Shown here: positions 2,729-45,183 of the stretch, in pieces
Position numbering within the stretch: the stretch's first letter is position 1
Layout of the letters: every line of letters starts with the position of its first letter
DNA from: Haplodiscus bocki
Taxonomy: Eukaryota
DNA: 64,000 nucleotides
Assembly (NCBI GenBank): GCA_965655095.1
Contig: OZ296648.1
Span: forward strand, 177,320,001 to 177,384,000
Reading direction: 5' to 3'
Translations under genes and position numbers: made by a program
The notes under the pieces: model-generated
The model's database searches: none
What the model was told of the DNA's origin: nothing
Seen by the model: only the letters and a program-made list of their open reading frames with translations

Positions 2729-3431
2729 TGTAGCGGCCCTGTATGAACCAGTACGAACATTTTGCAAGCAAATACTCGACATCCACTTCAGATTTATATT
2801 GTCATCTTTTGTCCCCCAGCCCCATAAACAGGCCTCTTTTAAAACAATCAAGTCTCAGCTTTGTATTCAATTAGCCAAGTAAACCCACACTTGAAGTGGC
2901 AATATATCTTATCATAAACTATCATTTTCACATGTTACATTATATTCCAGTCCTAACTTGTTGATTTTCATACGCATCTAAACTTATAACCAGGCCTCAA
3001 TTTATAAACTTTCATGTTAATCTAAACTTGTAAATTATCTTAAAAACATGAATCCTCCAACATTCTGCTGTTAATTGTAATCCTGTTTAAAACTTGACTA
3101 TTCGTGAATTCGAAACAAGAAAAAGAAGCAAAAACAAAAATCAGCAATCAGACGAACACGGAAGCGAAACGAGAAGAAGCTGCTTGTAAAAGAAGACAAA
3201 AAGAAAGAAAAACTCTGAACAATTGTGATATTCTGCTGATCATCACTAATGTAAGTGATTTGTGTTAAATATTAAAGTTAAATTCAGTCTTAAAGCAGAA
3301 CTAGATTTTTCTCTTAGAACAATCCCAAAGAGTACCTAACACAAACAACCGTCCTCGCATCCGAAGTATTGAAAGAAATGAGAACTCTAAACTCTTGTTG
3401 CCAATTTTCCAATAAAATCACGGTTGTTAAA
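2729..3431 (+). repeat. Element 1 5' LTR
   Basis: TGTAGCGGCCC...CGGTTGTTAAA, matching 14722-15424 with about 7 substitutions seen by eye. Splice-donor-like GTAAGT at 3251-3256; AATAAA at 3411-3416. Confidence 0.97.
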
Positions 3432-3432
3432 T

Positions 3433-3451
3433 TGGTGACAAGGGTGGGATT
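3433..3451 (+). promoter_or_regulatory. Primer binding site of Element 1 (tRNA-Leu/Ser-like)
   Basis: TGGTGACAAGGGTGGGATT lies 1 nt after the LTR. Its reverse complement AATCCCACCCTTGTCA-CCA resembles a tRNA 3' end of the Leu/Ser type. Confidence 0.8.
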
Positions 3452-3830
3452 GTTTTAAGCAATTTAGGTTAAAAATTCTTAACTTAGCATGATCATAGCT
3501 TTCCAAAAACTGCCTTAAGATCTCTTTGCCGGGACTTGTGCCGCGCTAACGCTAGTTTGTGCTCCACTAGCGAAAACCACCGTAGACGGCAGCTAAGGCC
3601 CATAGGTAGGAAAATTGAAATGAGCACGGGCAATTAGGAAATTGGAATTTTGTAAAACGAACTACTCTTCAGTACGGTTAGTTTAGTTCTTCATTAAATG
3701 ATTAACTTGTAGATAACTTCAAATACTAATTTTAGCTTGTTTTCTCTAACTGCCTTCATAAATAACGCAATCCTTCTTTTTGAAAATGACTTGCCTCCAG
3801 AAAAAGTTTTCCGTTTTTAAAATTATCTGA

Positions 3831-4082
3831 ATGTTCTCTAACCATACTAATCAACTACCCCTGTACCTTTTAAACCCAAACAACCCCGTTGACCCCCCAC
3901 CCCGTTATTCACGGAGCGACTCCGGGAGGCTACGCTACGATAGCAGCTCTGTTTTTCTTTGGGCGCTTTTCGCATTCTGTGTACTAGCACTCCTCTTTTT
4001 GATAGTGGTAGGATTAGTCCTCGTGCGCATACAATTAGATCACGTAGTAGCCAGTTGCACAGCCACTTCGCTAACAAATTGA
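3831..4082 (+). CDS. Small leader ORF: 83-aa single-pass membrane peptide with PPxY motif
   Basis: ATG-initiated; PPPRY followed by a ~25-aa hydrophobic stretch (VFLWALFAFCVLALLFLIVVGLVLV); lies between PBS and gag. Confidence 0.45.
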   Translation: MFSNHTNQLPLYLLNPNNPVDPPPRYSRSDSGRLRYDSSSVFLWALFAFCVLALLFLIVVGLVLVRIQLDHVVASCTATSLTN

Positions 4083-4577
4083 AGAATTCCTAACCGCACC
4101 TCAGTGGAGTTCGACTGTTTTTTTCCCAACATTCAATGCATTCTTTCATCTTTAAATCAGAAGCCAAACTCTTAGACCCACAGCATACCCCCACCCAATA
4201 CCCGTGTTTCTTCTGCCAGGTCGAATCGTTCGGACTCTTCAACATTTGGAGAAATACTCTGCCCATGCTTGTCAATTGTCACCTCAATTGTCTCTAATTT
4301 ATTTAACCTTGTTGCAAATCCACGATACCGATCATAGTACCACTATTGTCATCGAAAAGCTTTCCAGTAGGAAACAACTATCGAGAGTGCATCCCAAATC
4401 ACTGTTTTATTTCCGGTTAGCTAGAAAGTGGGTCAAAAACTTGCACCTTATAGAAGTATATTTGACAAATCTGTACCTCAAAAGTGAGAAAACTCAAATT
4501 TGAACTGCAATTTGCGCCAGTCCCTCAAATTCGCACCTTTTTAACAAGTATAAAGATAACGCTGACTACTAATCATA

Positions 4578-5981
4578 ATGACTGAAGTGGAAGAAAATAA
4601 CATCGATGTCAACGAATTTGAAGAAAGAGACGTAGACGCGTCAAGGAGATCTCGAATAACAAATTCAAATGACCCTCACTCAACCCCGGGATTTGCTGCG
4701 CGACACGAAGCAGGTGGATCCGCTTCGGCCGGACCTCATTTTTCGACACTTTTGGGCCATGGAGCAGCTCCAACTGCCCAGATGGGACCTGGTGGTTTCT
4801 TTTTAAACCCCACTAGTACCCTGCCGTCATGCCTGATGCCTGACTCATTTACTGGATCAGGAGACTTTGAAGACTATCTCCAAAAGCTCAACACGGCCGC
4901 GATGCTCTCGGGATGGCACTCTTCCCGACACGACAACCGTCCCCAGTACTTTGCACTTCGATTGAGGGACAATGCACTTCATTTTTACACCACATTGTCA
5001 CCCGAACAACAGAATGATTTTGACCTCCTTGTAGACGCTTTCAGACAAAATTACACAACCAATGTGGACATTTTGAAAGCACGATTAAAAGCTGCGAAGC
5101 AGCAACCAAGTCAAGATATTGCAACCTTCCTCTGTGATATTCGAACATTGGCACGCCGAGCATACTGTGCCCATCCGCATCTGATAGACCAAATCGTCCT
5201 CACCAGTTTCATCGAGGGATTGCAAAGTTCCACTCTCCGATGGGAAGTGAGAAAAACGAAACCATCGACAGCCGATGAAGCCTTGACAATGGCCATTGAA
5301 CTAGACTCTTTCCTTGCTCTGGAGCGCCAGAACAATGCTCCGGCCAGTTCCTTGTTCCCGAGCAGCATCAATTCAATCGCAGCAAATGCTTTGCAGACGG
5401 ACCCTATGGACGAACTCGTGAAAAGCCTTCGAAAAGAAATTGACGAATTGAAGTCATCGATCAACAGGAGACAAAACTCGCCCGAGAGAGGTCGGAATCA
5501 GTATCGCACTAGTGACCCAAATTGGAACAGAAGCGGATCCAATGAACAGACACGTTATCGACAAAATTTCGAAACAAGAAACGACGAACGGAGATCCAAC
5601 AGGTATGACAATAGAAGTAATTCAAGAGACAGATCAGAAAACAGGGCAACCCACCATAATGACCGGAGCACTTCGTATGACAAACAAAATGGTTTCAAAA
5701 CCCGGTCAGTTCGATTCGAAGAGGATCGTGGACGGACACATAACAATCAACACAATCAATCAATGCGCTACAATACACATAGCATGAATGCCGGAAATCA
5801 TCAGCCTATGAATAGCAACCGCAACAAGACATCTTCAAGATATCCACCTCAGAATCAAGAATGTCGACATTGTAAACGAAGAAACCATGCTTCTCATGAG
5901 TGTCAAGCCTGTTTTAATTGCCTCCGCGTTGGACATTTCCGAAGGGACTGTCCTAGGCAACGATCCAACCAGGAAAACTAA
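4578..5981 (+). CDS. gag: Gag (capsid + zinc knuckles)
   Basis: Retrotransposon-gag-like core (LRLRDNALHFY...KQQPSQDIATF...SFIEGL), R/N/D-rich region, and two CX2CX4HX4C knuckles (CRHCKRRNHASHEC, CFNCLRVGHFRRDC). Confidence 0.93.
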   Translation: MTEVEENNIDVNEFEERDVDASRRSRITNSNDPHSTPGFAARHEAGGSASAGPHFSTLLGHGAAPTAQMGPGGFFLNPTSTLPSCLMPDSFTGSGDFEDYLQKLNTAAMLSGWHSSRHDNRPQYFALRLRDNALHFYTTLSPEQQNDFDLLVDAFRQNYTTNVDILKARLKAAKQQPSQDIATFLCDIRTLARRAYCAHPHLIDQIVLTSFIEGLQSSTLRWEVRKTKPSTADEALTMAIELDSFLALERQNNAPASSLFPSSINSIAANALQTDPMDELVKSLRKEIDELKSSINRRQNSPERGRNQYRTSDPNWNRSGSNEQTRYRQNFETRNDERRSNRYDNRSNSRDRSENRATHHNDRSTSYDKQNGFKTRSVRFEEDRGRTHNNQHNQSMRYNTHSMNAGNHQPMNSNRNKTSSRYPPQNQECRHCKRRNHASHECQACFNCLRVGHFRRDCPRQRSNQEN

Positions 5982-6014
5982 AACAGTCTACGCAAAAGGG
6001 TCTTCGCGCAGACT
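5972..6014 (+). promoter_or_regulatory. Putative -1 ribosomal frameshift signal (gag-pol)
   Basis: G GAA AAC (5972-5978) directly precedes the gag TAA. pol is in the -1 frame and open from 5972. An imperfect hairpin AGTCT...AGACT spans 5985-6014. Confidence 0.7.
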
Positions 6015-9000
6015 TGAATAATAGAAAGGGCCCACAACGAACAATTGGTTTAAACTCAGTGGTCGATTCGCGCAGCGTTTTTGTGCAATTGAAAATTTTA
6101 GACAAAATGGTGGAAGCAGTATGCGATTGTGGAGCAAGTGTATCTTGTTTGAGCTCTGAGATTTACAACGAACTTAAGAAAACTTATCAAATAACATTGG
6201 AAGCCTGCACTAGAAGCCTGAGAGCGGCAAATGGACTGCCGATTGAAGTGAAAGGCATGATCAGAGTACCAGTATGTCTGGGGAATAAATTATTCTATCA
6301 TGAGTTTCGAGTTTTGGAAAAATCAGAAGCTGACTGCCTTTTAGGTCTGGATTTCTTAGAACGCCATAAATGCGACCCCCTGTTTTCACGAATGGAGTTA
6401 AGGTGGGACTCAACCCATTCTGCCCCCCTCTATCACAAAAACTTTGAAAATGACCACCATGCTATCTTTCGAGTCGTTGCGACCGAAACCATTAAAGTAC
6501 CAGCAGGCCACGCAACAATTCTTCCAGCACACATCCCAAATTGGAAGAGACCACCTTTCCACCTAAATGCTGTTTTTGAACCTTTGGAGAAATTCAATAT
6601 GAGTGAAGACATCTCAGCTCACAACATACTTTTTGATTTTTCCGACGATACGATCCCTGTCATTTTGACTAACGCATCGGACTCTGAGATCACGATCTAC
6701 AAAAACACAACTCTTGGGTCATCCGAACTTGTATCGGACGAACTCATCAATAATGTTAGCCACCAATTGCCAGCCCCCAGCGCACCTCCGGCTGCAGGAT
6801 CGGTACAAAACCGGCCAGACTCTTCGAGATATGACTTGCGAACAGTGATCACCTCAGTTGATTCAACCATTCACCGACAATACCGTCAACAATTTGCCGC
6901 ACTCGTCAAAGAATTCAAGCACGTTTTTTCGTCCTCAGAATGGGACTTGGGTAAGTGTGACGCTACGAGTCACAAAATTGATGTCTACCCTGACTCCAAA
7001 CCGATCAAAATTCCTAATCGTCGAATGCCATTGCCTTATAAGGAGGATTTGCAGTCAAAACTTGATGTGTTTTTGGAGAAAGATTTGATCGCACCTTGCC
7101 ACAGTCCTTACAGTTCTCCTGCTATGCTAGTGCCAAAGAAGAATGGAAAGTTGCGTCTTGTTATTGATTACTGCCAACTAAACAAGCAGACTGTTAAATC
7201 CAGTTGGCCGATCCCGTCTTTTGAAGAAATCTTCGACACACTGGGCGGAAGCTGTTATTTCTCTACAATTGATATGTCCGCTGGATTTTATCAAGTACCC
7301 ATGGATAGGGACAGCCAAGACTACACAGCATTTAGCACTCCCTTTGGATCGTTCAAGTGGCTGCGAATGCCGATGGGACTAACTGGAAGCCCAAACACTT
7401 TCCAAAGCCTAATGGAACGTGTTCTTACTGGCCTTACCTGGAAAACGTGTGTACCCTATCTCGACGATTGCATCATCTTCTCCACAACCCCAGAGGAACA
7501 CCTTTCACGTTTACGCCAAGTATTTCAACGTTTCCAGCAGGCCAACTTGAAAATCAATCCATCGAAATGCGCTTTCTTTCAAACGAAGGTACAGTTCCTT
7601 GGGCACATTGTCAGTAAGGATGGACGTCAGGTGGACCCCGAGAAAATCAATGCAGTACTTAAGTTTCCTACCCACACCAACCAGACACACGTGAAGTCCT
7701 TCTTGGGCTTAGCCTCCTACTATCGCCGCTATGTCAAAGATTTCGCTGAAATCGCTCGACCTTTACACAAAGCAAGTGAAACTTCTTCCGAGTTTCAATG
7801 GAATGACGCAGCACAAACTTCTTTTGACTCGTTAAAACATGGTTTGACGACCACTCCAATTTTAGCATATCCGTCACTTCAAAAGCCATTTGTGTTATAT
7901 ACAGACGCCAGCCAATTTGCAATGGGCGCTGTTTTGGCTCTGGAACAAGACGGTTTAGAACGAGCAATCTGTTACGCCTCCAAGGCTCTTTCCAAAACCG
8001 AGAGCAAGTATTCAGCAACTCGTCGTGAACTCTTGGCCATTGTAACTTTCACCCGTCACTTCAGACACTATTTACTGGGACGCAAGTTCACCATTGTAAC
8101 GGATCGTCGAGCACTTCAATGGCTCCATAATTTCAAAGACCCGGATGGAATAACCGCCCGTTGGTTAGAAAAATTAGCACCTTTTGATTACGATGTTCGA
8201 CATCGTCCTGGGAAGTCTATTGGACATGCTGATGGACTTTCAAGAATTCCGTCGCCCATACATGCAGTAGCAGAAACCAACAACCCTTCATTCCCGTTTG
8301 AAGAACATCTGGGACCCAATGACTCGCCCACCTATCAGACGCAAGTGAACGACGGTAGTTACTACTCTGACCAACATCACATTGATTCCCCCACGACGAA
8401 TGCAACAACTCAACAGCAAGATGAAGCAATCGGCATCTACCGCGAAGCAGTTGGAAACCTTTTCGATATCCACGAGTCCTTTGGCCACTGTGTGTCCGCT
8501 GACTTCAAAATGTCGGCCGGTATAGCGAGAAAGATTCGCCGTAACTACCCTTGTACTTACCCAACCGGATGGAATCACATCACGAACCCCTTTTGGCCCC
8601 AATGGTTGCCTGAATCCAAACGATACCTCTACCATTTAGTTACAAAACAGAAGTTCTATCAAAAACCAACTTACGGAACACTGCGCGCTTCCTTGGAAAG
8701 AATGCGATCGCACGCCGAACAGCATCACGTTTACAAAATTAGTTTGCCATGTATCGGCTCTGGCCTCGACAAGCTCGAATGGGAGCAAGTACGCCAACTG
8801 ATTCAGGAAGTTTTCCGTACCTCCCCTTTTCATATTACTGTTTTTCTGAAAACTCCAGTAGACCCTAAGGAGAACGACTGTAACTCCGATTTCCATGACA
8901 ACGCCTTGGTACAAGCACAGGAAGCTGACGAAAGCTTACACCAGGTTCGGAAATGGATTCGAAAAAGTCGTGTACCTCGGAGGGATGAACTGCAAGGACT

Positions 9001-10771
9001 CCCTCGTTTAGGATGGCAAATGTTCAACCAATTAGCTAGTCTCCACATCAAAAACAACGTGCTTTGTCGAAAGTTTGAACCACTTGACGGTAATTTGCCC
9101 TTCTTACAAAAGATTATTCCGCGATCCATGGTACCAGAAATTTTGACGGCTTTACACAGTTCTAAAACCGCTGGTCATTTGGGAACGCACAAAGTCATTG
9201 AAAAAGTGCGTCAACGTTTCTGCTGGCCCGGATTTAAAGAAGATGTCAAGCAATTCATCCAATGTTGTGACGTTTGTCAAAAGAAGTCTGGACCCCCAAA
9301 GACCCACCGCCATTCTTTAGTTGACTGGAAGATCAGCTACCCCTTCCATCACATTGGTCTCGACTTTCTTGGCCCACTTCCCCTTTCTAATGGCAACCGC
9401 TTTATTCTTGTGATTGGCGACCATTTCACCAAATGGTACGAGGCGATACCCCTGCCAGACCAGCAAGCTTCCACTACTGCCGATGCGCTAATTGAACACT
9501 GGATTTGCCGTTTTGGATGCCTTAACAGCATTCACACGGACCAAGGCCGTAATTTCAAATCAGCCTTGTTTCAGCGTCTGATGACTTTGCTCGAAATCAA
9601 TAAGACACGGACAACTTCTTTCCACCCACAGTCAAACTCAGTCATTGAGCGCATGAACCGCACATTACTGAATATGCTCACCAAAAGTATCGACAAACAA
9701 CAAGCTAACTGGTCTTATTTCCTTCCCTTCGTTCTAATGGCATATCGGTCCTCCGTCCACGAATCAACCGGTTTCACTCCCAACCGTCTGGTCCTTGGAC
9801 ATGAGGTTTTGCTTCCTCTTGACTTGATGTATCCGCCTCCCGGAAGCCACGTCCCAACTAACATCAATGAATATGTGATGACCCAACAACAGAAATTTCA
9901 CCAAGTTTTCGAACTAGTTCGGTGAAATATTACAGCTCAACAACGCCGTCGCAACGCTCTTTACAACAGGAAAGTCCACGGCCCCACATACAGAGCGGAT
10001 GATTTTGTCCTTCTCCATTACGACGTCACTGTCACTGGCCAAAGTCCAAAACTATCCAGCCCCTGGCGCGGCCCTTACCGCATTTTGAAGTGCATTAATG
10101 ACGTTAACTACAAAACTGAGGAACTCTCAACTGGCAAACAGCTAATTGTTCACTATGACCGCCTAAAACGATACCATGGCAGTCCGCCTCCCTCAACGAC
10201 AAAACCGGCCCGACCTTCACCTCCTGGACCTGCTCAGCAGACGACATCGCAGCCCTCCTCGGAGACCGTCAACCACGATGACTGCGTTGTCTCGTATTTA
10301 CCTCCTCCTACTCTCTTTGCTCCCTCGCCGTGGTTCAGCCACCCGCTTCCGACCCCTACAGACAACACCCCTTCCCGAAATGTCACCGTTGCTTCCCATG
10401 TCTCGCCACCTATTTCACCGAGTATTACTGCCTCCACACTTCCCTACGCTTTAATGCCTAGCTCCTTGCCATCCCAAGCCTCAATTCCTTCCCGTAATGC
10501 GACTTCTTCCAATCAACCCAGGACAATCCCGTTTACCAACTCCCCGCCTACGAGACCCCCGTCTTCCCCGGTGGCGAATATTGTTCGTCGCGCTGCTCGC
10601 GAGCTACACAGCCGCAGTCCCTGCAACAAACGTACCCTCCGACCTAGCACGGCGACTCAACGAAAAGCACAGCCTCTTTTCCGCTCTCGCTTACCCCGCG
10701 ATCTGACGGATTTCCTTTCTCCTAGGAGGCAGAAAAAAGCGCAGCCTTCTGCTCTGTCTAACCAGCACTAA
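6014..10771 (+). pseudogene. pol: Pol: protease - RT - RNase H - macrodomain - integrase (GPY/F) - P/S/T-rich tail; one in-frame stop at 9923-9925
   Basis: PR VCDCGAS; RT YLDD; RNase H YTDASQ...RELLA; integrase H-H-C-C, IGLDFLGP/IHTDQG/SVIERMN; in-frame continuation PWRGPY after the TGA into ORF 10085-10771. Confidence 0.95.
8435..8848 (+). other. TARG1/OARD1 (Poa1p-like) macrodomain inside Element 1 Pol, between RNase H and integrase
   Basis: GNLF...GHCVSADFKMSAGIA...YLYHLVTKQKFYQKPTY...ISLPCIGSGLDKLEWEQV...VF parallels the TARG1 motifs AHCISEDCRMGAGIA / YIYYLITK..KPTY / MPRIGCGLDRLQW (recalled, not searched). Confidence 0.9.
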
Positions 10772-10846
10772 CACTCTGTCACAGCCAATGAACCAATGCC
10801 GAATGATTGTATGGTCTTCTCTTTATTTAGGAGACACACCAGCTAT

Positions 10847-13201
10847 ATGACGTCACCCACCCCTTTCTTTTTCCTTCCTTTTTTATCCTCCTTCCTCAAC
10901 GTCTGTGCTGATGTCCAGTTCACAACACATTTGAGCGATTCATTGGACGACCCTGTTTTCAAGAAAGGTGCTGCTTTTGTCTTTCAATTTCAAGCCGTGA
11001 CACCGGAAAGTGAGAGTAAGGTTCGTGTGTTCTCACCGTTCCCAAGGATCCCTGATATTAACTTGACCAACGCGTATACTATCCTTCAACAACGTGGACA
11101 CTCCGATACCCTAGCAGGAATGGCCTCGGTTAAGCTGTGCCACACTGCAGACTTGGAACAATTATATGATAACTTGTTTAATCGACTCGCCGAAAAATTG
11201 AAAATATTGGAAAAAGAAATTCAAGCTGCTCAGACAGATCAACACAACTTGGTGACGATGGCTTCTTCTTTCTTACCGCCGTCGATTCACCCACATGACG
11301 CACCTTCACGAAACAAACGAGCAATTGGACTCATCGCAGCGGCTGCGGGAGCCGCGGGACTGGCTCTGGGAGACCCGGTCAAAGAGGCTGCATGTTCAGC
11401 GCTCTCTATTTTTAACCTTTGCACAGATACTTCAGATTTGCAACACGACATTGACGGTATTTTAGCTACTCAATATCAGTTTCAAGATGTTCTGCAACGC
11501 GTTCAAACGAAAAACGATGAAAAATTTTTCTTGCTTGGTAACGAAATCAAAGACACACAGGACAGTGTGGTCAAGATAACAAAACTCGTGGGCACACAGT
11601 TAAAAACCCTGGAAAAAGAATTAATGGAAATCAAAGGCGTGATAGCCAGCCTTCCGGTTTGTAATCAACAACTTATACACAGTATGTCCTTTTTGCAACA
11701 AATTCGGGATTATATTGATCATTTGGGAACACTGTACGCACATATTAAATCTTACAGAGCCGCTTTTTACGCCTACCAGATTGCGCTCTATTCCACTATT
11801 TCGTCACTGGCTGCTGGGTATGTCAGCCGTCAATTTCTCCTCCCTTCCCAACTGGCTTCCATTGTCAGCGACCTTGCCCATGACGAGACTCTCCGTGGCA
11901 ACAAGCTCTCGCCTGCCATCCATGTGGGCCAGGAAGCCATCTACTATGAACTCCAGATGGTTTTAGAAGTTTCCCTTCTCCCTAAAGGTATTTCGGTTGT
12001 CCTTGGCGTTCCGATGAACTCTAAGCGCCCCTTCAACGTCTATCGCGCAATTTCCCTGTACCAGCCTAACGATGATGGCGATACCGCTTCCTTGTATCAC
12101 TTCCCCAACCCTCTTCTAGCCATATCTACTGACAATTCCCGTTTTGCTGAGCTTGATGCCGCCAGCCTTCAGCAATGTTCTGGTAATAACCGCATTAAAC
12201 TCTGTCGTCAAGGTTTTTCGACCACTACAGACGAAACCTTGCTTTGTTTACCGTCTTTGTACTATAATTACGATATACCCGCTCTTCGTAACTGTAAAGT
12301 AGAATCTGTCCTTCTGCCTGACGCTCCTCAAGCTTTTTACTTGGCTGATGGTTTATATCATATTATCTCTCGTGACCCTCACATACAGATGAAAAATGAC
12401 AGTGGCTCTGACTTTTCTATTTCTACCTTATCTTGCAAAGCTTGCTTGATCCGCCCTAGCTGCAGTAGCACCCTCTCTTTCAATCAAGGTGATTTGGAAC
12501 TCCGCCCTGACCTCGATTTCTGCAAAACTAAACCCGAACCCTTCTTGGCCAAAATACAGCTTACTCCTTCTCTGGATTAGATCTTTCAGCATGTTCCCCG
12601 CACCGCCAGTAACTTTCACACATATTCCGTGACGGAAGCCCGTCACTCAGTCCTTAGCAGCGTTCGTTTGGAATTAGCCGAACTCCCTAATGTTAAAACA
12701 ATGTCCACCGAATCCCTTGCTGAGCTTGCAAGACCAATCGCTCAGTAAAATTTTTCCGTCTCTCCGGCCACTTCTGCAGCCTTATCCTCTTACCTCCCCA
12801 CCCGTACAGCTATCTGTTTTTCGGTCGTCTCCATCACTATCTCTCTTCTTACCTTCAGTATTAGTTTTACTCTCTTCCGTCGACAATGGAAACGTCTCTT
12901 TGCCCACCCTCAACGCTTTTTCCGTGGTACTTCTGGCAAGTTCTTGCACATTGTGGATGCCCATCCAACTTCCCCTAACACAGACTCTTCTTTCTTGTAC
13001 CTTTCGGTGCAAGAGTTTCAGGCCTTGCAGGCTCTCGCCCATGCAACTCTCCGTGACCGGTCCCCACCCTTAGTCTCACCCAACCCCCCGGCTACCGCCT
13101 TACCCACTCACCCGCCTACTAACTACACTCAACCTAACCCCCAACTCACTAGTGTGTATCCTTCTGTTACTGTGCCTCTGTACTCCGAATCTACTACTTA
13201 A
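10847..13201 (+). pseudogene. env: Env, class I fusion glycoprotein (baculovirus F/errantivirus/paramyxovirus F-like); in-frame stops at 12578-12580 and 12746-12748
   Basis: Signal peptide MTSPTPFFFLPFLSSFLNVCA; furin site RNKR (11309-11320) followed by fusion peptide AIGLIAAAAGAAGLALG; heptad region; Cys-rich region. The in-frame TM (ICFSVVSITISLLTFSISFTLF-RRQWKR) and tail continue through ORF 12944-13201. Acceptor-like TTCTCTTTATTTAG ends at 10830. Confidence 0.88.
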
Positions 13202-13592
13202 CTTGTCACCCTTTCCGCGTATGTTATATATGATTCTCAGTATCTATGTATCACCTTCTATTACTTCTTTTTATGTTCCTATGTCTTCTCTTCTCATCCT
13301 GCGCGATGCCTCCTAACGCGTTTCCGCGTTACCACCTTTCCTCCTCCTGCCGCGCTTGAGTGTGCGCAATTTTGGCACGTTTCCGTGCGTTTTTCCTCCA
13401 GTCTCGGACTAGACGCGCTCTCTGCGCCCCGCATTACGGTGTTCGACACGTTTCCGTGTCTCCCTGTACTTGGTGACTTCTTGTCTTCATACGTTTCCGT
13501 ATGTAGCCTGCCCCCCTCTTTTTTCGTTTTTCCTTTTTTCGTTTTGTCCCTTCTTTCCCTCACTATGTTTGTATCATCTCTTGTTGTTTCAG

Positions 13593-13938
13593 GTCGCACT
13601 TCAACTTCTTCAGCACCCACCTTGCCCGCCGACACCCTGTGTTAACCAGTTCTGGACGCATCCACCCTGTCGCTGTCGGAGACCATGTGTATCTGGTGGA
13701 AGACGTCCAATATCGCATCACCAAGTTGTCCCCAGACAGTGATTCCGTTTGTTTACAAAAGATCAATTCGAGAGACCGTCCTTTTAAGCGTTCCATCCGC
13801 CAAATCTGGTTGCCTCCACCCACTACTTCTGAATCTTCTGCCTTCGCTGACCTCCCACAACCAACTGTTTTTGCCCAGAACCCTTGCCTCCTCCCGTTCT
13901 CCCCGACGTCATGGATAAGTCCACCCAAGCTGACATAG
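13593..13938 (+). CDS. Uncharacterised accessory reading frame (possible small beta-barrel), perhaps the frameshifted N-terminus of the J-domain ORF
   Basis: Follows a long pyrimidine tract and TTTCAG acceptor (AG 13591-13592). VGDHVYLVEDVQYRITKL...VCLQK has an SH3/Tudor-like alternating pattern. It overlaps the next ORF in a different frame. Confidence 0.35.
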
Positions 13939-14672
13939 ATAAAGAAACTGCTCTCAATGATTGGGTCACTGTCACTACCGACTTTTCTTCTGTCAACCAA
14001 CTGGACAAGGCTTTCCAAGATGCCCGGCGTGAGGCTGAAGTATTTTACGATATGTATACTGAGGCCGACTTGGCTGCTGCCTCCGCCCGCAAGCAAATTA
14101 AACAGCTCACAGCTGAATCTCAACAACTCCGTTCTTCCTTGGATGACTTAAACCGTACCCACAATAGCATGATGGCCGATTCCCTCCGACATCTTAACGA
14201 AATCAGTTCTCTCCGCACTCATCTATCTTCTTTGGACGGCTCCCACACGAAAGCGTTAGCTTCAATGATCCAACACCATCTGTTATCTCTTCCCACCAAT
14301 TTTAACGATCCTGCCACCCCGGACGACACATTCTATCATTTTCTTTGCTGCAACCCTTCCGCTGATATGTCTACACTTGTCCGTCATGCCAACACACTCC
14401 TGCGCTGCCTACATCCTGATAAAGCTTCACCCACTACCGACCACGCCGTCGCTGCTTCTCGCCTAGTTCCCCTCCTTACTAACATCAAACGTGTGTTGAC
14501 ACATCCCGGCCTTCGCAAAGTGTATGACCACTGTGGTCTTCTTGGATTCCGCCGCCTCCTGGATTCTTCTCTTCGTTGCTACCGTTGCACCCCTCGAGAC
14601 GCCGATGACAATTTCACCAAGCAAGGCCGCTGTGAATTCCCACAATTATTCCTGCTCTTCTCAACCTCCTGA
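13911..14672 (+). CDS. Accessory protein: coiled coil + C-terminal DnaJ J-domain
   Basis: Heptad region (ARKQIKQLTAESQQLRSSLDDLNR), then FYHFLCCNPSADMSTLVRHANTLLRCL-HPDK...IKRVLTHPGLRKVYDHCG, the J-domain pattern (HPD at 14412-14420). Confidence 0.82.
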   Translation: MDKSTQADIDKETALNDWVTVTTDFSSVNQLDKAFQDARREAEVFYDMYTEADLAAASARKQIKQLTAESQQLRSSLDDLNRTHNSMMADSLRHLNEISSLRTHLSSLDGSHTKALASMIQHHLLSLPTNFNDPATPDDTFYHFLCCNPSADMSTLVRHANTLLRCLHPDKASPTTDHAVAASRLVPLLTNIKRVLTHPGLRKVYDHCGLLGFRRLLDSSLRCYRCTPRDADDNFTKQGRCEFPQLFLLFSTS

Positions 14673-14708
14673 TTTTTTCCCTCCAATTGCGCGGACGCAA
14701 TTTCCCGC

Positions 14709-14720
14709 GGAGGGGAGTAG
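14709..14720 (+). promoter_or_regulatory. Polypurine tract of Element 1
   Basis: GGAGGGGAGTAG ends 1 nt before the 3' LTR. Confidence 0.85.
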
Positions 14721-14721
14721 T

Positions 14722-15424
14722 TGTAGCGGCCCTGTATGAACCAGTATGAACATTTTGCAAGCAAATACTCGTCATCCACTTCAGATTTATATTGTCATCT
14801 TTTGTCCCCCAGCCCCATAAACAGGCCTCTTTTAAAACAATCATGTCTCAGCTTTGTATTCAATTAGCCAAGTAAACCCACACTTGAAGTGGCAATATAT
14901 CTTATCATAAACTATCATTTTCACATGTTACATTATATTCCAGTCCTAACTTGTTGATTTTCATACGCATCTAAACTTATAACCAGGCCTCAATTTATAA
15001 ACTTTCATGTTAATCTAAACTTGTAAATTATCTTAAAAACATGAATCCTCCAACATTCTGCTGTTAATTGTAATCCTGTTTAAAACTTGACTATTCGTGA
15101 ATTCGAAACAAGAAAAAGAAGCAAAAAGAAAAATCAGCAATCAGACGAACACAGAAGCGAAACGAGAAGAAGCTGCTTGTAAAACAAGACAAAAAGAAAG
15201 AAAAACTCTGAACAATTGTGATATTCTGCTGATCATCACTAATGTAAGTGATTTGTGTTAAATATTAAAGTTAAATTCAGTCTTAAAGCAAAACTAGATT
15301 TTTCTCTTAGAACAATCCCAAAGAGTACCTAACACAAACAACCGTCCTCGCATCCGAAGTATTGAAAGAAATGAGAACTCTAAACTCTTGTTGCCAATTT
15401 TCCAATAAAATCACGGTTGTTAAA
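14722..15424 (+). repeat. Element 1 3' LTR
   Basis: Direct repeat of 2729-3431, followed by TSD GTTG. Confidence 0.97.
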
Positions 15425-17949
15425 GTTGTAATTAGATGGCAACCCATGGCATGTTGACTTGAGCGAAAAAATTCCTGTAAAACTTGATAGGCACTTGATA
15501 TCTAACATGATTAGCTGAGAGAATAATAACGAGAAATATTAGTGAACATTGCCCAGGTTCATCAAGCGTGCAAATCATGAAAGAACCATACATGTAAAAT
15601 GGTAGCATACAATCATACAAAAAAAAACAATTTATGACTTGTATGAAATCTATTATCGTCTATTCATGACTTGATGTCACCGTATCCTTCTTTTGAACTT
15701 CAAAACTTTCATGTTTTCATAGGTTACTACTATATATGAGTTTCTATGATTTCCATGTTTCTTCCACGGAAGTCAAATTGAGTGGCAGATGGGGAATTAC
15801 CACACATTTTAAGATTAAAATCAGATCAAGCGGCCAACTTTACATTTGTCGAATTCGAATCCAGATCGCCTGCCATGAAATTTTCGAAAGATAATTCGAT
15901 TAAATTTTTGATCAACCAATCATGTTTAGGCTCTTACTACTTTACTGGCACAATAAAGGCTACCCCACTTGAGAACACATTGGTAACATTGACTCATCAT
16001 TATTGTTGTCATCCCTAACATCAATGATGCATCAATTTTACATCGAAAAATGTGAATGACTCCTGGATATTGCATTAATGTTTCTTCCTCTTTTCCTTTT
16101 TTCAATTTTTTTCAATAATTTCCCATATAAAAGCCATCGATGTTCCGTCGAATAAACATCAATGATTCATCGATGAAACATGAATGAATCATCACTGAAA
16201 CAACGAGGAATCACCGATGAAAAAGTAATTTTAATTAAGTGTCCGACGGCTGAATTTGAAGTACGAAATTACGATTTCTTCAAATTTCATCAATTCCAAT
16301 ATAATTGAGCAAAAGTAATCGTCAAAAAGTTGATCTAAAATCGAAAGAGCAATAGGTTTAGAAATAACGCCGAATAAGATATTCTTGGCGAGTCTCAGGC
16401 CTGAAAATAAAATTTTTCTAGTAAAATGCCCTGTTTTTGTTTTTAGTTTATAGAAGACGTCTTTTAAAGTTAGATCGATTGAATTGTAGCCAAAAGAAGA
16501 AGTAAAAGGGGAAAAGGGCAAAACCTGCAGAAGTAGAAAAAATAATTCTTTCTCGACTAGTTTAATTCTTACAAAGTCTTCTTAAAAAAATTTTTGAAAT
16601 TTTTGATGTTTGTAAGGAACTTTAAGATCATCCATCCTATAGGTTCCCACTAGTAGCTGAAAATTGGATTTGGAAAGCACAAGCATGATGATACTGAAAA
16701 TATCACGATATTATTTTTGTTGGATCGCGTTTATAATTAGAGCAACGAAAATGTCATTGTTGACTAATTTCAGCAATTTTGAGATATACAATTTTTTTAC
16801 ATGTAACGTTTTGTTTTCATTTAGCACCTAGTTTTAATAATTTTTCACTGTTTAGTGCGTAAATCTTTCAAAAATTGTGTTGCAAAATGGCAAATCTTAA
16901 AAGACATCATTGATAGATCAAATTTTTAATATTAGACACGGCTAAAGGTACTGCTCTCATTTGGACGCTTTGGAACAAAATTTTGATTGACAAATGTTGT
17001 AGTGTTGCTAAAAATGCCAACCTTGTATCCAGTCAATGTTCAAATATCTCTCTGGACCTTTAACCTGAGAACTTTCTCTTTGATTTCAACTGACAAGTCG
17101 ACAAGTCAGAATATGTTGCGAAGTTCTCTTTCGCCCCTGTGTTCAAATTTTTATAAGTTTATTTCTTCCTGGTTACAAAGTCCCGGTTGATTTGCTATAT
17201 TTTAGGCCTTGTGTTTTTGGGTTTTTTTTGCAACGCCAAGGGTAAAGTTTCTGTTTTCTTTCTTGTGCAATGTGAAAGATGCATGAATCATTAATGAACA
17301 TCATCAATGTTTTGAAACATTATGCTTAATAATCATTGATGATCTTCAGTGTTTCTATCGAAATCATCAATGTTTCCTCAATGTCATGTCGATATTTTTT
17401 CAAAGAATCATTAATGAAACTCGCGTTATAGCTAACGCTTAAACAGATATATTATATTTCCTAAATGCGTGCAGTAAGCTATTAAACAGGGAATGAATAA
17501 TGTTTAACACGGGAACTGCAATTGGTATTGACTAACCTGGGAGTTGCTGTTGCTGGTGGTAAATGGTATAAAAGAAAGCTGAAAGATTGGAATTGCACAA
17601 AGAGAAGGGAAAGCAAAATTTCTAAAGGCGCGGAAATGTGGTTCGACGTGATTGGCTCAACGACCAGTCACGAAGATGTCGTCATAACTTCGTTTCCTAG
17701 CTGGTACGAGAGAACGGCTTGGCCATTTTTGACTTACTCGCTTACCGGCCGGCAGCCATATTCCTTTCCCTTATTTCACTTCCCTTTCCTTACGCCTCGC
17801 TTTCTTTTCCTTCTTGCTTGGCCAAATTTATTCTGAATTCCCTTCTTTCTCTCCGCGGACGAAAATATTCCAAGACAATTCTAGCTTGCCTTGCCTACAA
17901 ATTTTGCCGCTTACAGACCCAACCGTCCTACTCTCCGCTTATCACCAAA

Positions 17950-18313: not shown

Positions 18314-18588
18314 CCCAGTGCACAGCCATAATATTCATTCGCTTGCTACCGTCAACTACCAACTTCCCCGAGGCAAAACTCTCTTCCACCTTCCTTTCAC
18401 CCATATTCTGGAAATATTCAAAGACTCTTCGTCAACAACCCGAAAATATTCAAAGACTTTTTCGCCTGCAAATTTGTCTGAGCCGCAAATCAGCAACAAC
18501 CCGAAAATATTCAAAGACTTTTTCGCCTGCAAATTTGTCTTAGCCGCAAATCATCAACTATATCCCGGAAATATTCGAAGACTTTCTG

Positions 18589-18885
18589 GGCAGCAATCAA
18601 CAGCATCAACCAGCAGCAGCAACCAGCAGCAGCTACCAACAGCAGCAACCAGCAGCAGCTACCAACAGCAGCAACCAGCAGCAACTACCAACAGCAGCAA
18701 TCAGCAACATCAACCAGCAGCAGCAACCAACAGCAACAATCAACCGCAGCAATCAGCAGCATCAACCAGCAGCAGCAACCAGCAGCAGCATTCAGCAGCA
18801 ACAATCAACAGCAGCAACCAGCAGCATCGATCAGCAGCAGCAACCAGCACTAACAATCAACAGCAACGACCAAAAGCAACAACCA
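18589..18885 (+). repeat. Degenerate CAG/CAA trinucleotide array inside the solo LTR
   Basis: (CAG/CAA)n interrupted by AAC/ATC units; it accounts for the Q/S/A-rich ORF 18261-18938. Confidence 0.9.
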
Positions 18886-21332
18886 GTTTCGTCCTACCAG
18901 CATCACCCCCACAATCCACGACGACCCACGTTAGATAACATTACGGTTCCTAGCACTGGCTACGTCCTGCTAGAAGTTGATTTAGGATTAGCCGCCCGGT
19001 TGCGAGTGCAGTCACCGTTACCGAGGACCATTTTTTGTGACATTTCGATTTTTCTAAAACTCCCTTTTTGTGATTTTTCTTTTTTTTCCTAAGACGTAGT
19101 ACTAACTATTAACCTGTAAAAGTAAAACTTTATTATTCACGACCTATTGGCAGTCCCTATGACGTATGCCTTGGTCGCAGATAAAAGAGAATAAAATTCA
19201 TTGCTGGTTTCCCGTGGGTCCGGACTTTATCGGCAGGGACTAAAACACCGGCTTAAGATTAAACCCGACGAGCTGGTTTTATACCGCACGGAGGTACTTT
19301 TTTATACTAAGAGTAGTGTAAAATGCATGTAATGTAAAATGCATGTAATTTGAACCCCCTTTCCCTACAGACTAGCCTATCCAGCTTGGGACTAAAACAG
19401 GGGCTAGTCTTTTTTTACCCGTAATCCTAGTTTATCAAGAGAGACGTGGTATAACTAAACGTAAAACAAATTGTAAAATGGCGGGCTAAAAAAAAGCCGA
19501 CCAGAGATAAGACGGGACTTGTTCGCCACCCGCACTGGTCAGAAAAGTAAAATGGTGTATGTGAAACATTTTATTCTATTGTCAGGCAGTGGATGTGGAT
19601 GTGGATGTGGAATAAATTATAATTTTGATGTTTAGAAGTTTTAATTTATAACATTAAATTTATGGGACTAAATTTGAATAGTCCAAGAGTGTATTTACGA
19701 TGATTCATTTATAATTCAATTGGACTAAATTCAACGAGTCCAATTTTTATTCTTGAGTTTCTAAATCCTAAACTAAACTTAATTCAATAAATTTGACTTT
19801 TATATTTAACTTCATAATTTCAATTCAGACTAAATTAAAGTAGTCTGAATTGGTGGATGTTGATTGCATTTTGTAATTTTAATTCAGACTAAATTAAAGT
19901 GGTCTGGATTTTTTAATTGCTATTATATTCCTCACTCCTAAAGTGAAGTTAACATAACGGTGATTAATATTTTTCACGTTTGGTGGCACCCTTATTTATA
20001 CAAATCCTGATTTAATTTTTCCAACTTCTGGTAGTATCTTCACGTGCAAAATTTTGTTGCTGTAAACAGAATAAGAGAGACGTAAGTCGGGTTGGCAACT
20101 ATATTGAGCAGAAGTAAAGGCTATATGGCAAATTTCCCTGTGCTATTCCACGCTTACAATTTGGTAACTCCCCCTTACCAACGTGCAGTTAGTCGAACTT
20201 AGAAAGTTGGAAATTTGGAATACCTTCAATATTAATTCAATGTTCTTTCGTACCATTCTCCGCTATAGCTCAAAAGTCCTTGCTTGAATTCACGCAGTTC
20301 CTTTGTTCGCACGGTTAAGCAAGGCACGCCATTGAGACTTGTAAATATTAGCCGTCGCTATAACGCTGTAGTGCTGGCTGAGTTAGCTACCGGCACAGCT
20401 AAGTAAATATTAGATTTGTAATACCAGTACCCCTACCACGTGCGACAAAACATTAATGGAACATCAATAGAACATCGATGTTTCAGAAATTAACAACACA
20501 TTGTGAACATTACTTATCTTTGCCTCGTTGTCTGTTTAATGACCGAGCCTGTTTTTTCCACGATGACATCGATGATTAATCAATAATTTCAATGCGCTCT
20601 CAACTGGGACTGTAGAATTAGCAGGCGACACTTTCATTTAAGTGACGATGTATGACATCAAAATCAAGGAAGCGAACAGAGTTGAACTGAGTTGAAATGA
20701 TTTGTGAGGACAGCGCGAAAAAAAATTTTAGGAAGAAAAGAATTGATGAAAACGACTGAAGATGAGGTCTTCTCAACTGTTTAGTCGCGCACACGTCTAA
20801 CAATGTCTAATAAATATATAAACACTGTAAAAAGGCGCATTTCAATTTGTATGCAACTCCCGCAGATGAATCTATCCGAAACTAAATTTCGATGTAAATG
20901 AATGAATATTTTTCTGCAGGTGGGGTTTACAAACAGCTCCCGCAAACAATAAAAGAACTTCATCAGGGGTTCCTCAATCTCTTTCTATTAAAAAACCTAC
21001 CGTTTGAACTAGCAAATCTGGATTTTTCTGCCAGGAATACTGGATTCCTGAGTTTCTTGTTAGCACCTCTATATGCCCAAATTTCGTGGTGAGAATCCTG
21101 TATTCCTGAGTTTTCGGATAGGATCCAGGTTCACTATCTGAATGTGCAAAATTTGAAAGACATGCGTGAAATGTAATCAAAACATTCTATTATCTCCAAC
21201 CCATATTAATATGCTCTATCATTAATCGAGCTACATCCTTTTTGACTAGCAATTCCATATTAAGTTCCAACGTGTTAGTAGCAACTGCTAACTAACACGC
21301 TGAAATTTACTTAAATTGCAATTGGTAGTACA

Positions 21333-38118: not shown

Positions 38119-40646
38119 TGTTGCGAGGGGTAGGGGGAATTATTGCTATGCTACTACGAGCATGCGGAAAGTAGAATCAATACTTGAGTTTAATATTCTT
38201 TCTCGCTCTAATTTTCTTTCTCGCTTAGTGCGGCAGGTTATTAGTGTTGCTTCTGTTGTCTAGATCAATACAGCGGTGGCGCCGCGGCGATTGTTTCGTC
38301 TAATGAAAATAAATCTCAGGGGCTTTTATCGATCTACTTTCAGGTGCCTTGCAGGCCCCGCGAACAAAGATTGCGTAAGTTCAAAGCAAGGACTTTACGA
38401 GCGATGAGGAGAAAATAGGAAATGAAATAATCAATTATTCAGTCAGCCGGGGGAACAAATATAATTAAATGCAAAATGAAAGGGGACTGCGCTAATGGAA
38501 AATGAATCATATAGTAGCAAAAGTGGGAGCAGAGTAAATTTCAGTCTCCATATAAAGTGTTTACAGCAGCCAGCAGAAAATTTTGTTATTTTTAAAATCA
38601 CCGAGAATTTATTCCCTTCAAAAGAATTACGATTATCGTCCCGTTGTAAATATTCCCTTCATTTATAAAATTCATCAGTTCAGCTGAAACTCGAAAACGT
38701 AATATTCAAGAAAAATTAAGATGGAAAACGCTGATAACACAACGAATATCTGATAATCTATTAATAAATTGAATGTTTAAAAAATCATTAGTAGAAATAA
38801 AATTAGCAAAGCAGTTTCCAATAACTTACGAATTTCATATGACAAAAATATAAGATGTCTTTTACAAAACTCTCAATACTATTTGAGATAAATTTCGGAG
38901 GTAAATTAACGTCTAGTAGTTTTTTTTTCTTCAGGCCAGATAGGAGACCTTTGTTCTCCTATTGTTCTGGGCCTGTTTTCTGAGGGAGTTTTTGGCTTTT
39001 TGTTGGTTTTATTTTATTAATTAACGTTATGTTATATATAACCTTTTGTATTTTGGTCTACACTCAGTACTGGCTTCGGCACAGTAACTGGTTGTGATCC
39101 TATTTTCCCGATCGTCCAAACCGTGAATAAATCACCGGATTTATTGGCGGGATTTGATTTGTTTTAAGCTTTGTCAATTTTGGTCTACACTCAGTACTTG
39201 CGTCAGCACAGTAACTGGTTGTGGTCCTAGTTTCCCGATTGTCCGAACCGTGAAAAAATCACCGAATTTAGTGGCGGGGTTTCGATTTGTTTTGAATTTT
39301 GTCTATAACTCAGGCAAAAGCTCGCTTTTAGCGGCAACCTGGTGATATTCTCCTAGTTCCCTTTCTTTCCAACCGAGAGCTTTGTCTAGCGGATGTTACG
39401 GAAGGAATTTATAAAGATTAGAACTGATCAGAGAGATATACTCAGTCTGAACTAGGAAACTTATTGACTTACGGTTACCGTTGATGGAGTTTGATGATCT
39501 ATTGATAACTCTGGGACTCTCCTCTGGGAAATCTGACTTGCGCGGAAAACGAATGGGAATTTTCGAATCAATACAAGGAATGGAATTGTTTGAATCAAGA
39601 ATGGACGGTTTCTGCGTATTTAAACCGTAAATCGGAATTTAGAATAAATTCTAAAGACCACGGTAGCAGACGAGGTGAGAATGGTCTATGAGTAATGTCA
39701 ATTCTCTTTGCCTAAGAACCTCGTGGGGGGTCGTGCATATTTAAGATCCACTCATGCTTCAGAACTAAGTTCATCCACGGAACCCGCACACGCCAATGCC
39801 GAAGCTAGCGTCAGTGGACACCGTTTAGACTCCGATGGCAAGAGTATGTAATAGGTAAGCAGGGAAGAGGGAATTTTTCTAAGTCAAGAAAAGAATGGGA
39901 CTTAGAATATTTTTGTAGAATTGAGCTGGTTTTGCGATTAAGACGGAAATTGGAACTGTCTTAGAATATTTTTGTAGAATTGAATTGCTTTCGCGACTAA
40001 GACAGAAATTAGAATTGTCTTAGAATATTTTTGTAGGATTGGAATTGGACTTAGAATATTTTTGTCCAAGAAGAGGAGAGAAGAGAGAAATTGGACTTAG
40101 AAAATTTTTGTCCAAGAAGAGGAGAGAAGAGAGAAATTGGACTGAGAAAATTTTTGTCCAAAGAGGTAAAAGGGAGAAGGGAGTTGGACTTAGAATAAAT
40201 TTGTCCAAGTAAAAGGGAGAAGTAGAGTAAAGTAAGCAAGTCAGAAGAGGAGTAAGAAGTCCCGTCCGCTTGAGCGGGAAAGCGAGTTATGATCAGGTCC
40301 GTTTCCCAGATCGACCCCAAAATAACATCATGCTGCCGTTTCATGCAACCAATAAGAAAAAAGCTTGTAGCAGCTATGGAACCAATAAGAAAAAGGCTTG
40401 TAGCAGCCATGGATTTTTGCTTGTAGCAGCAGGAGCCAATAAGAAAAAGGCTCGAGTTAGAAATTTTTTTTTAAAATTATTTATGCAACTTCAACGGTTT
40501 CTTTATTTCTTCAGCTTTTTTCTATTCTTCAATTCGTTAACGGCCCCCATATTTATCAACAGCCCCTCAAGAAGGTTAGCTTTAAGTAATTAATTAATTA
40601 TGTTTCCATTAATTAACGTTTAAGCGTTATGTGTAACGCGATAACT
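38119..40646 (-). repeat. Element 2 3' LTR
   Basis: Direct repeat of 55738-58266 (offset 17619). Internal ~120-bp duplication, CTTAGAATATTTTTGT tandem units, and CCAATAAGAAAAA x3. Confidence 0.96.
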
Positions 40647-40683: not shown

Positions 40684-42051
40684 CTATGAAAACGGGAAAA
40701 GGAGGGAAGTTTGGGTGTGAGGTTTCAGCACAAGAGGGTCAGAAAATTTGATCTCTATGAAACTCGCAGCATCAATTAGAAAACCTTCAGTTTCACTAAA
40801 GAGTTTGGAGTGGGGAATAAAATTATAAATTAGGATTGTTGCAACTCCAGTTTTTGTTGACATTGTTGGCTTCTTGTAGGCTGGGTCTTGATCGGGTCGG
40901 ATTGTCTTCATCCATGTGTTCATTGGATCCAGTTGGTCTCGAATACCAATGTGGATGAGCTTTGAGAAGGGCCATTGGAGAAGATTGTTGTAGTCTCCAG
41001 GGAAGAGGGTGAATAGAATTGAAGCACACTTGCCTATAGCGGGTCCAATACCATACGGGTAGAATTTATTGAAGAAATTGTACCCATGGGGGTGAGTCCT
41101 GAAGATAGGGCTACTAAAGCTTGTGGCCGGCTCAATGAGGGGATCAGATGATGGTCGGGCCACTTTTGCAGAGTCGAATACAAATTTCACTGAGGGGATT
41201 TTCCAAATAATAACATCTGAATTGCCGGGTTCAAGCTGGCGAATTTTATAGTATAAGAAGAAGTATTGGGAGTGAACACCCGCAGTGATGGATGTGTAAT
41301 TCGATATTTCATTGGCAAACAGTTTTTCTAATTTGCAAATTCCTGTTGTGAGGTTCTGCATTGTGGTTGAAGAAGCTTCCTGTGAGTTGCTTGTGGGCTT
41401 GAAATCGGCGTTTGGAGTATTGTTTGTTTTTGTTGTGGGTGCCCCCACAGGGCCCACCGGGGTAGAACGATGAAGTTTGGGGTCACCAGGGCCAGAAAGG
41501 AGAAAAGCAGAGGAGGTAGGGTTAGGGTTAGGGCTAGGGTTAGGATTAGGGTTAACGTTAGGAATTAATAGAGGACTAGTAGCGGCGTCCTTGGCTTTGA
41601 TATCCTTATTGAGGGTTGTGTCAACCGGGAGAAAGAGCAAGTAGCGCAATAAGGCAAAGTCATTTTGCAATTGGAGGAGGATGAGTTGTAGTGTCTGCCT
41701 GTCTGATTGTTCGGCTTTCAAATGCTGGTTAACCTGTTTGATGGTTTTGTTAATATCCTGAAGGCAGTTCGCTTGATGTTGGAGTGATGAAGGCAAAGGA
41801 GCTGAAGACCCAGGAGTTGATTGATTAGCTGCTACATCTGGTTTAGACTGGTTTGTCGGCTGGAGAAGAGGGAGGAGGAGAGTGTTGTCCGCAATGTGTT
41901 GGTTAATAGAGGGAATAGTTTACAAAGGCATTCCGCAAATTAATTGAGCCAAAGGAAGATTCATTGTATTAGAATGGTCCAACGAGGTAGGTGGGTCAGA
42001 GGAAGATTGATGATGAGGGAGGAAAGCTGGTGCAAGTGGGTTAAGTGACAT
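40684..42051 (-). pseudogene. PAM2 motif - coiled coil - TRAF-type MATH domain protein; one in-frame stop at 41920-41922
   Basis: ATG at 42051 starts MSLNPLAPAFLP (PAM2-like) in the same frame as ORF 40684-41796. Coiled coil LQDINKTIKQVNQHLKAEQ; MATH motifs VIIWKIP, SPIFRTHPHGYNF, FPGDYNNLLQWPF, IRDQ. Confidence 0.85.
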
Positions 42052-44880: not shown

Positions 44881-45183
44881 CTCTGGTATTTTACGTCAGA
44901 GAGAAAAACTATTAAAAAAAGAAATAGCGTCTTCACAGGTTTTCCCCGTGGAAGTTCACTCTATTTTTTCAGAGGAATAGCTATTGAAAAAAAATGCCGT
45001 AACATCAAACCGGCGCTCTGTGGGCACTAACACAAAGTGGAAACTATAATTTTATAGTAGTAGTTCCACTACTATTAAAACAACGTCGAGATTTTCATAA
45101 AGGGTGCCGGAATAGAACCGGTATCACCAAAAAAGTGCCAAATTCAGTATGTAAAAGTAACTCACCTCAACCATTGGGTTTCT

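Follow-up and report, generated by a model that had tools for sequence, protein, structure and literature searches.

Organization of the window and of element 1

The window, the whole stretch of 64,000 nucleotides of the Haplodiscus bocki genome that was analysed, contains two LTR retroelements. Element 1 (2729–15424), a Ty3/Gypsy element of family A1, was delimited by its LTRs, target-site duplication (TSD), and sequences resembling a primer-binding site (PBS) and a polypurine tract (PPT); it lies on the forward strand, as do all of its features described below. The alignment of the 5′ LTR (2729–3431, 703 bp) with the 3′ LTR (14722–15424) showed 7 mismatches between the 703-bp copies, which corresponds to 99.0% identity. 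A 4-bp TSD flanks the element (2725–2728 and 15425–15428), the PBS-like sequence (3433–3451) adjoins the 5′ LTR, and the PPT-like purine tract (14709–14717) precedes the 3′ LTR.

The gag gene (4566–5981) encodes a Retrotrans_gag domain and a zinc knuckle, and runs into the start of pol, which is read in the -1 frame. The pol gene (5957–9925) is an open frame of 1322 codons that ends at a premature stop. It encodes the protease (6083–6364); the reverse transcriptase (RT; about 6992–7726, with the Pfam match at Pol residues 392–552); the RNase H (about 7799–8251, Pfam, residues 615–743); and the integrase (9116–9613, Pfam, residues 1054–1219). The premature stop (9923–9925) cuts the C-terminal SH3-like domain and tail (9926–10771; PF22938, E 1.6e-9) off the integrase. 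The next gene (10772–13201) is env-like and of the F type by a weak match (Baculo_F, E 0.0017, under the cut-off), and its frame is broken from position 12578 onward. An accessory ORF (13851–14672) encodes a coiled coil, with a weak match to DnaJ (J-domain, E 0.0027, under the cut-off). The copy is young yet defective.

Element 1 presents all the traits of Ty3/Gypsy elements, namely the LTRs, TSD, PBS, PPT, the order protease–RT–RNase H–integrase, and RT and RNase H of the Ty3 type. The nearest solved RT is that of Ty3 (E 1e-73), while the gammaretroviral RT was matched only at E 1e-35, which rules out a Retroviridae-type RT. Outside both elements, a 61-bp duplication followed by a 13-bp tandem array was observed at 18433–18940.

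Identification of a TARG1-class macrodomain in Pol

Between the RNase H and the zinc finger of the integrase, Pol of element 1 carries in frame a macrodomain of the TARG1/OARD1 class (8435–8848; Pol residues 827–964). A preliminary description had reported an uninterrupted macrodomain with LVTK and GSGLD motifs in this interval, and both the stop-free translation and the order of the Pfam domains agree with it. The Pfam Macro profile matched residues 888–948 with 21.1 bits within the whole Pol (cut-off 22) and with 26.5 bits (E 6.8e-6) when the domain was excised. The translation presents the motifs LVTK (8636–8647) and PCIGSGLD (8747–8770), which contain the equivalents of TARG1 Lys84 (8645–8647), Gly123 (8762–8764) and Asp125 (8768–8770); this numbering follows an offset inferred from the alignment with the PDB sequence.

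A phmmer search against the PDB recovered eight sequences at E ≤ 0.1. The top five were human TARG1/C6orf130 (E 2–3e-23), with LVTK aligned over LITK, GSGLD over GCGLD, and Asp over Asp; DarG came next (E 4e-4), and Poa1p was not among the eight. Since the prediction from the single sequence was poor (pLDDT 48.5), an AlphaFold model built from an alignment of 66 sequences was used instead (pLDDT 97). With this model, TARG1 was the first match both in Foldseek (TMq 0.86) and in VIA-align (Z 23.9, rmsd 1.4 Å over 135 residues, 36% identity), followed in the latter by DarG (Z 19.9) and Poa1p (Z 17.2). Judged by the sequence alignments and the predicted structure, the match to the TARG1 class is far beyond chance, so that the class assignment of the preliminary description stands, also by the structural comparison that it had proposed as a check.

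The sites from which TARG1 removes ADP-ribose are acidic residues, phosphate ends of DNA and RNA, and thymidine (PMC7050489, PMC8501950, PMC8883491). Its catalytic residue is Lys84 (PMC7050489, PMC8501950); the acidic partner is written Glu125 in one of these reviews (PMC7050489), and the PDB sequence of TARG1 has Asp. The domain of element 1 shares with human TARG1/OARD1/C6orf130 (PDB 4J5Q, 4J5R, 4J5S) the minimal ALC1-like macro fold, the Lys84 and Asp125 equivalents and the glycine-rich phosphate loop. It differs in being part of a retroelement polyprotein and not a stand-alone cellular gene, in having a hydrolase role that is predicted, and in presenting Cys at the position of Arg119 in the phosphate-binding loop. 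This Cys occurs in three subfamilies, the copy in element 1 included; across 168 domains, the position is occupied by Arg in 66, Lys in 37, Gln in 23 and Cys in 17. The domain is probably an active ADP-ribose hydrolase.

Two further groups of macrodomains offer a comparison. DarG (PDB 5M3E, 5M3I) has the next closest fold and the same catalytic Lys, but it lacks the acidic partner and is paired with DarT (PMC7050489), while the domain of element 1 has the Asp; no transferase family that could be a DarT-type partner was found among the 15 ORFs of the window that were scanned. The macrodomains of alphaviruses and coronaviruses provide a model for counter-defence erasers located inside a polyprotein, but they are far more distant (for alphaviruses, Z about 14 and 10–12% identity). 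Viral macrodomains reverse the marks placed on RNA by PARP10 (PMC7050489, PMC8501950, PMC8883491). Many viral genomes hold TARG1-like homologues, few of them with all the catalytic residues (PMC4245714).

A second macrodomain in element 2

Element 2 (38119–58266), an LTR element of family B, and all of its features lie on the reverse strand. It comprises gag, a broken pol, and two LTRs (38119–40646 and 55738–58266) that are 99.3% identical; they are unusually long (2.5 kb) and present internal repeats. No matching TSD was found for this element by eye. The env gene (42697–44895) is of the gB type, with a clear match (E 1e-35). Between env and the 3′ LTR lies a TRAF/MATH ORF (40684–41919), a possible signalling antagonist; in the genome search, all 150 scored matches to it were 90–100% identical, many of them in frames of about 500 codons.

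A second macrodomain of the TARG1 class (52224–52622) is encoded by element 2, here between the protease and the RT, and a stop lies just upstream of it in the window copy. The two elements are 37% identical in their macrodomains and 30% in their RTs. All 150 scored genome matches to the family B macrodomain presented 93–100% identity, and deeper subfamilies were found at 66–78% and at 45%. The dN/dS ratio was 0.09 in two of three pairs, the third pair having no synonymous change, and 27 of 30 family B loci, chosen by score, retain both the Lys and the Asp.

Distribution and selection of the family A macrodomain

The search of the 1.5-Gb genome with the macrodomain of element 1 gave 6055 first-look candidates, and all 150 that were scored proved to be matches, with 58–100% identity. 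The integrase profile gave 18,988 candidates; neither figure represents a copy number. The order protease–RT–RNase H–macrodomain–integrase is common to six family A subfamilies of the genome and one library protein. Compared with the window copy, these subfamilies are 77–85% identical in RT, 72–82% in RNase H, 64–75% in integrase, 50–66% in protease and 45–68% in the macrodomain. Between subfamilies, the macrodomains are 64–70% identical and the linkers on either side only 5–30%. Behind env, subfamily A5 also presents two RING-finger-like ORFs (locus L092, 7825–8244 and 8884–9351, forward strand; best E 1e-4, under the cut-offs).

Nei–Gojobori dN/dS ratios were computed for 11 family A pairs. 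The macrodomain presented values of 0.06–0.12 in seven open-frame pairs, one of them near saturation, and two pairs were saturated at synonymous sites. The two remaining pairs, which involve the window copy, presented 0.19–0.25, as expected because this copy is decaying. The equivalents of Lys84 and Asp125, which the preliminary description had identified with the catalytic pair of TARG1, are present in all 62 distinct family A loci, as is the equivalent of Gly123; these loci were picked by score, a choice that favours intact motifs.

This purifying selection demonstrates that the macrodomain matters to the element. A domain captured by recombination and merely tolerated in the linker could account for its not being universal among the LTR families of the host. 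Such a neutral passenger is nevertheless refuted by dN/dS values near 0.1 in a domain whose linkers diverge and whose catalytic residues are kept across subfamilies saturated at synonymous sites, and we regard it as extremely improbable. There was also no sign of rapid adaptive change in the macrodomain, which evolves at about the rate of the protease.

Predicted processing of Pol

A short motif of the type hydrophobic-Asn/His/Gln-x-hydrophobic, which we take to be a protease site as in Ty3/Gypsy elements, precedes the protease in all six genomic subfamilies of family A and follows the RNase H in six of the seven subfamilies examined. In element 1, this putative cut site lies just after the RNase H (8258–8269). 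No such motif was found between the macrodomain and the start of the integrase in any of the seven, an absence that, given so short a linker, is weak evidence. Since the motif follows the RNase H and none precedes the integrase, the family A macrodomain probably stays on the N-terminus of the integrase after processing. In both family B subfamilies examined, a site-like motif lies directly behind the macrodomain, which is probably cut free from the RT.

Chromodomains steer integration in chromoviruses, and the macrodomain might likewise be a reader that binds ADP-ribosylated chromatin and directs the integrase. The probable fusion to integrase in family A and the presence of readers in the ALC1-like class (PMC7050489) are in keeping with such a function. 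The retention of both catalytic residues in 62 of 62 family A and 27 of 30 family B loci, and a position in family B that is not on the integrase, speak against it, and we find a reader very unlikely.

Related elements and origin of the macrodomain

As a control, integrase loci were chosen regardless of the presence of a macrodomain. Among five further loci, three belonged to family B and two had no macrodomain. Two other LTR families in this control have open Pol frames without a match to Macro, which makes the domain an accessory one. The first has a gag-pol frame of 1263 codons and no downstream ORF of at least 150 codons; the second has a gB-type env and an RT 50% identical to that of family A.

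The domain was also compared with a library of protein representatives at 50% identity, of which the best 150 of 2580 matches were considered; a Pfam scan covered 61 of the 76 proteins of at least 200 residues among them. Retroelement Pol domains were found in 10 of these 61 proteins. Among the matches listed, the macrodomain occupies four positions in Pol, including one behind the integrase, in four proteins, and others on either side of the protease. One protein, P0119, is a Ty3/Gypsy Pol that ends in a macrodomain and a Tpt1/KptA-like domain, the latter a weak match (E 3e-6), and it possibly joins a writer and an eraser in one polyprotein. Fusions of TARG1-like domains to DNA ligase III, PNKP, UDG, TatD and NADAR were also observed (P0169, P0100, P0030, P0151, P0132, P0124). 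P0100 was considered as an NCLDV-like protein, an assignment that was dropped, as it looks like DNA ligase III.

According to the preliminary description, the domain is packaged with Pol and may reverse PARP-mediated ADP-ribosylation of the cDNA, the intasome or repair proteins at integration sites. On this view, a domain tethered to integrase would clear the marks of PARP1–3 from cDNA ends, integration gaps or repair proteins. Such a function would be housekeeping that lets the host repair complete integration, and not counter-defence. PARP1–3 modify DNA ends (PMC7050489, PMC8501950, PMC8883491), the host encodes a canonical PARP1, and the domain is probably retained on the integrase in family A. 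Among the library matches listed, the four proteins with a macrodomain behind the integrase and the fusions to DNA ligase III, PNKP, UDG and TatD point in the same direction. On the other hand, the family B domain is far from the integrase, between protease and RT and with a site-like motif behind it; library proteins, among the matches listed, have it before or behind the protease; and the repair step is common to all LTR elements, yet two families lack the domain. The fold, the class and the Lys/Asp pair of that description hold, a role at integration sites is not required, and we consider such a role unlikely.

Capture of macrodomains by reverse-transcribing elements has a precedent in fish, where Basta et al. 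are said to have found in 2009 a domain of the Poa1p/TARG1-like type in pol, with RNase H and integrase on its two sides. Fish epsilon-like elements are described as occasionally encoding CNPase or macro domain proteins (PMC4977317, citing Basta et al. 2009). As far as that account goes, these teleost endogenous retroviruses resemble element 1 in being env-bearing and in carrying a captured macrodomain, but they have a retroviral RT, whereas the RT here is of the Ty3/Gypsy type; here, moreover, two lineages and two positions occur in one genome, and the catalytic pair and the selection are documented. The fish domains were absent from the 61 longer library proteins scanned.

A survey of 1512 env-bearing Ty3/Gypsy elements, named ancient errantiviruses, included the bridge between RNase H and integrase, for which RNase H-like, 'mini' and 'pseudo' domains were named (PMC13524379). 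These elements share the gag-pol-env organization with those described here, in which env is of the F type in element 1 (weak match) and of the gB type in element 2, but no macrodomain is named for their bridge, in which a 'pseudo' domain might have a macro fold. The word 'macro' does not occur in the text of that survey, and the matches displayed from its supplement are species names. In the literature searched, which left most subscription papers and the Repbase reports outside its scope, no macrodomain was described in a Ty3/Gypsy Pol.

Among viruses, the nearest folds came from RNA viruses associated with invertebrates and from a CRESS virus. A single-protein query of viral contigs gave 10 pattern matches, none of which was confirmed as a relative. 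The ESM Atlas yielded only stand-alone Macro/OARD1-like clusters, and generic RNase H–integrase clusters under 0.9.

Phylogenetic trees grouped family A with retroelement fragments of the library and placed family B apart, with deep nodes weakly fixed; each family forms one side of a branch (SH-aLRT 91 and 99). In a tree of 52 rows, with four long-branch rows and one partial row left out, a single origin was rejected by the AU test neither for families A and B (p-AU 0.70) nor for a set of 19 retroelement domains (p-AU 0.11), so independent captures are not claimed. Trees of RT, macrodomain and integrase with 11 rows had weak support. The host also has two tandem TARG1-like genes that are not part of LTR elements (L091, G000:C2:12301600–12311500). 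One of them matches library protein P0041, and its neighbour bears a long repetitive extension that terminates in RG repeats; one of the two is 38% identical to the macrodomain of element 1.

Candidate ADP-ribosyltransferases of the host

In the search of the genome with the PARP profile, 26 of 41 scored candidates matched. Of 14 PARP loci examined, nine are fusions of an Upf1/ZNFX1-like SF1 helicase with PARP; the others are PARP1, a tankyrase, two WWE-PARPs and one without an assignment. The host has at least nine such helicase–PARP fusions as long single-frame genes (L107–L114 and L116; contigs 2, 3, 5, 11, 12 and 155). Four have a ZNFX1 domain and three have two PARP domains. The first PARP domain is of the H-Y-E type in four and of the H-Y-hydrophobic type in four. 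Pairwise dN/dS among four close paralogs ranged from 0.06 to 0.37, as under purifying selection, and no positive selection appeared in these pairwise averages. The fusions are tied to the macrodomain-bearing elements solely by their common genome.

The genome presented a single weak match to the Tpt1 family, a frame of 2061 codons on a 22-kb contig (L115, 2349–8531, reverse strand). A Tpt1-type enzyme bears on another possible function, in which the macrodomain, inside the particle, would remove ADP-ribose caps from primers or RNase H products at their 5′-phosphate ends, or clear ADP-ribose-phosphate metabolites. Tpt1 caps the 5′-phosphates of RNA and DNA, and TARG1 reverses this capping (PMC8883491); CNPase or macro domains occur in fish endogenous retroviruses (PMC4977317); and P0119, among the library matches listed, combines the two domains. 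But the match that defines the Tpt1-like domain in P0119 is weak and the activity of that domain putative, the host offers just the one weak match on a small contig, and by fold the macrodomain is nearer to TARG1 than to Poa1p. We find this housekeeping of RNA ends quite unlikely.

A macrodomain as a putative counter-defence enzyme

By a narrow judgement, we favour the reading that a captured ADP-ribose hydrolase of the TARG1 class is kept by these elements as an accessory counter-defence enzyme. Being encoded in the frameshifted Pol frame, the macrodomain would be made at a low level as part of Gag-Pol and would enter the particle, attached to the N-terminus of the integrase in family A and freed from the RT in family B. 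Such a scarce, particle-bound domain would be suited to local action on the RNA, cDNA and proteins of the element. There it may strip ADP-ribose placed by host transferases on the components of the element itself; candidate targets are the genomic RNA or the cDNA, at their phosphate ends, and acidic residues of Gag and Pol proteins. PARP10, PARP11, PARP15 and TRPT1 modify RNA ends (PMC7050489, PMC8501950, PMC8883491). The removal of ADP-ribose would allow reverse transcription and integration to proceed. The packaging, the cleavage pattern, the target and the defensive nature of the marks are all inferred.

Counter-defence is preferred to the other functions considered above because the domain occurs at two positions, is optional, and is accompanied by other captures, since the same elements carry the TRAF/MATH and RING domains, host-derived and typical of antagonists. 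Several observations count against it: TARG1-like genes also exist in the host itself; families without a macrodomain also multiply; the macrodomain presents no rapid adaptive change, evolving at about the rate of the protease, and in three subfamilies has Cys at the Arg119 position; the loci in which the catalytic residues were counted had been chosen by score; and the helicase–PARPs, under purifying selection, give no hint of an arms race in pairwise averages.

A more specific proposal is that of a defence by ADP-ribosylation, in which the expanded family of ZNFX1/Upf1-like RNA helicase–PARPs would sense and tag the RNA or proteins of retroelements, and the env-bearing Ty3/Gypsy lineages would answer with a TARG1-class eraser placed at different positions in Pol. 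We offer it as a speculation that is more probably wrong than right. If true, writer and eraser would form a conflict system for transposons in addition to piRNA silencing, one that recurs across animals; hints of such recurrence are the four Pol positions among the library matches listed and the fish retroviruses.

Significance for retroelement biology

Viral macrodomains have been the clearest sign of antiviral ADP-ribosylation, and the evidence for retrotransposons has been thin so far. Captured domains of this kind were already on record for endogenous retroviruses of fish and for viruses of invertebrates. As the domain is small and candidate writers of the host can be named, experiments on isolated proteins could ask which step of the retroelement cycle is ADP-ribosylated. 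The presence of an eraser under selection in two distant and abundant Ty3/Gypsy lineages implies that ADP-ribose marks affect the fitness of retroelements in this animal, and suggests that the host may use ADP-ribose tags against mobile DNA and that the elements remove them.
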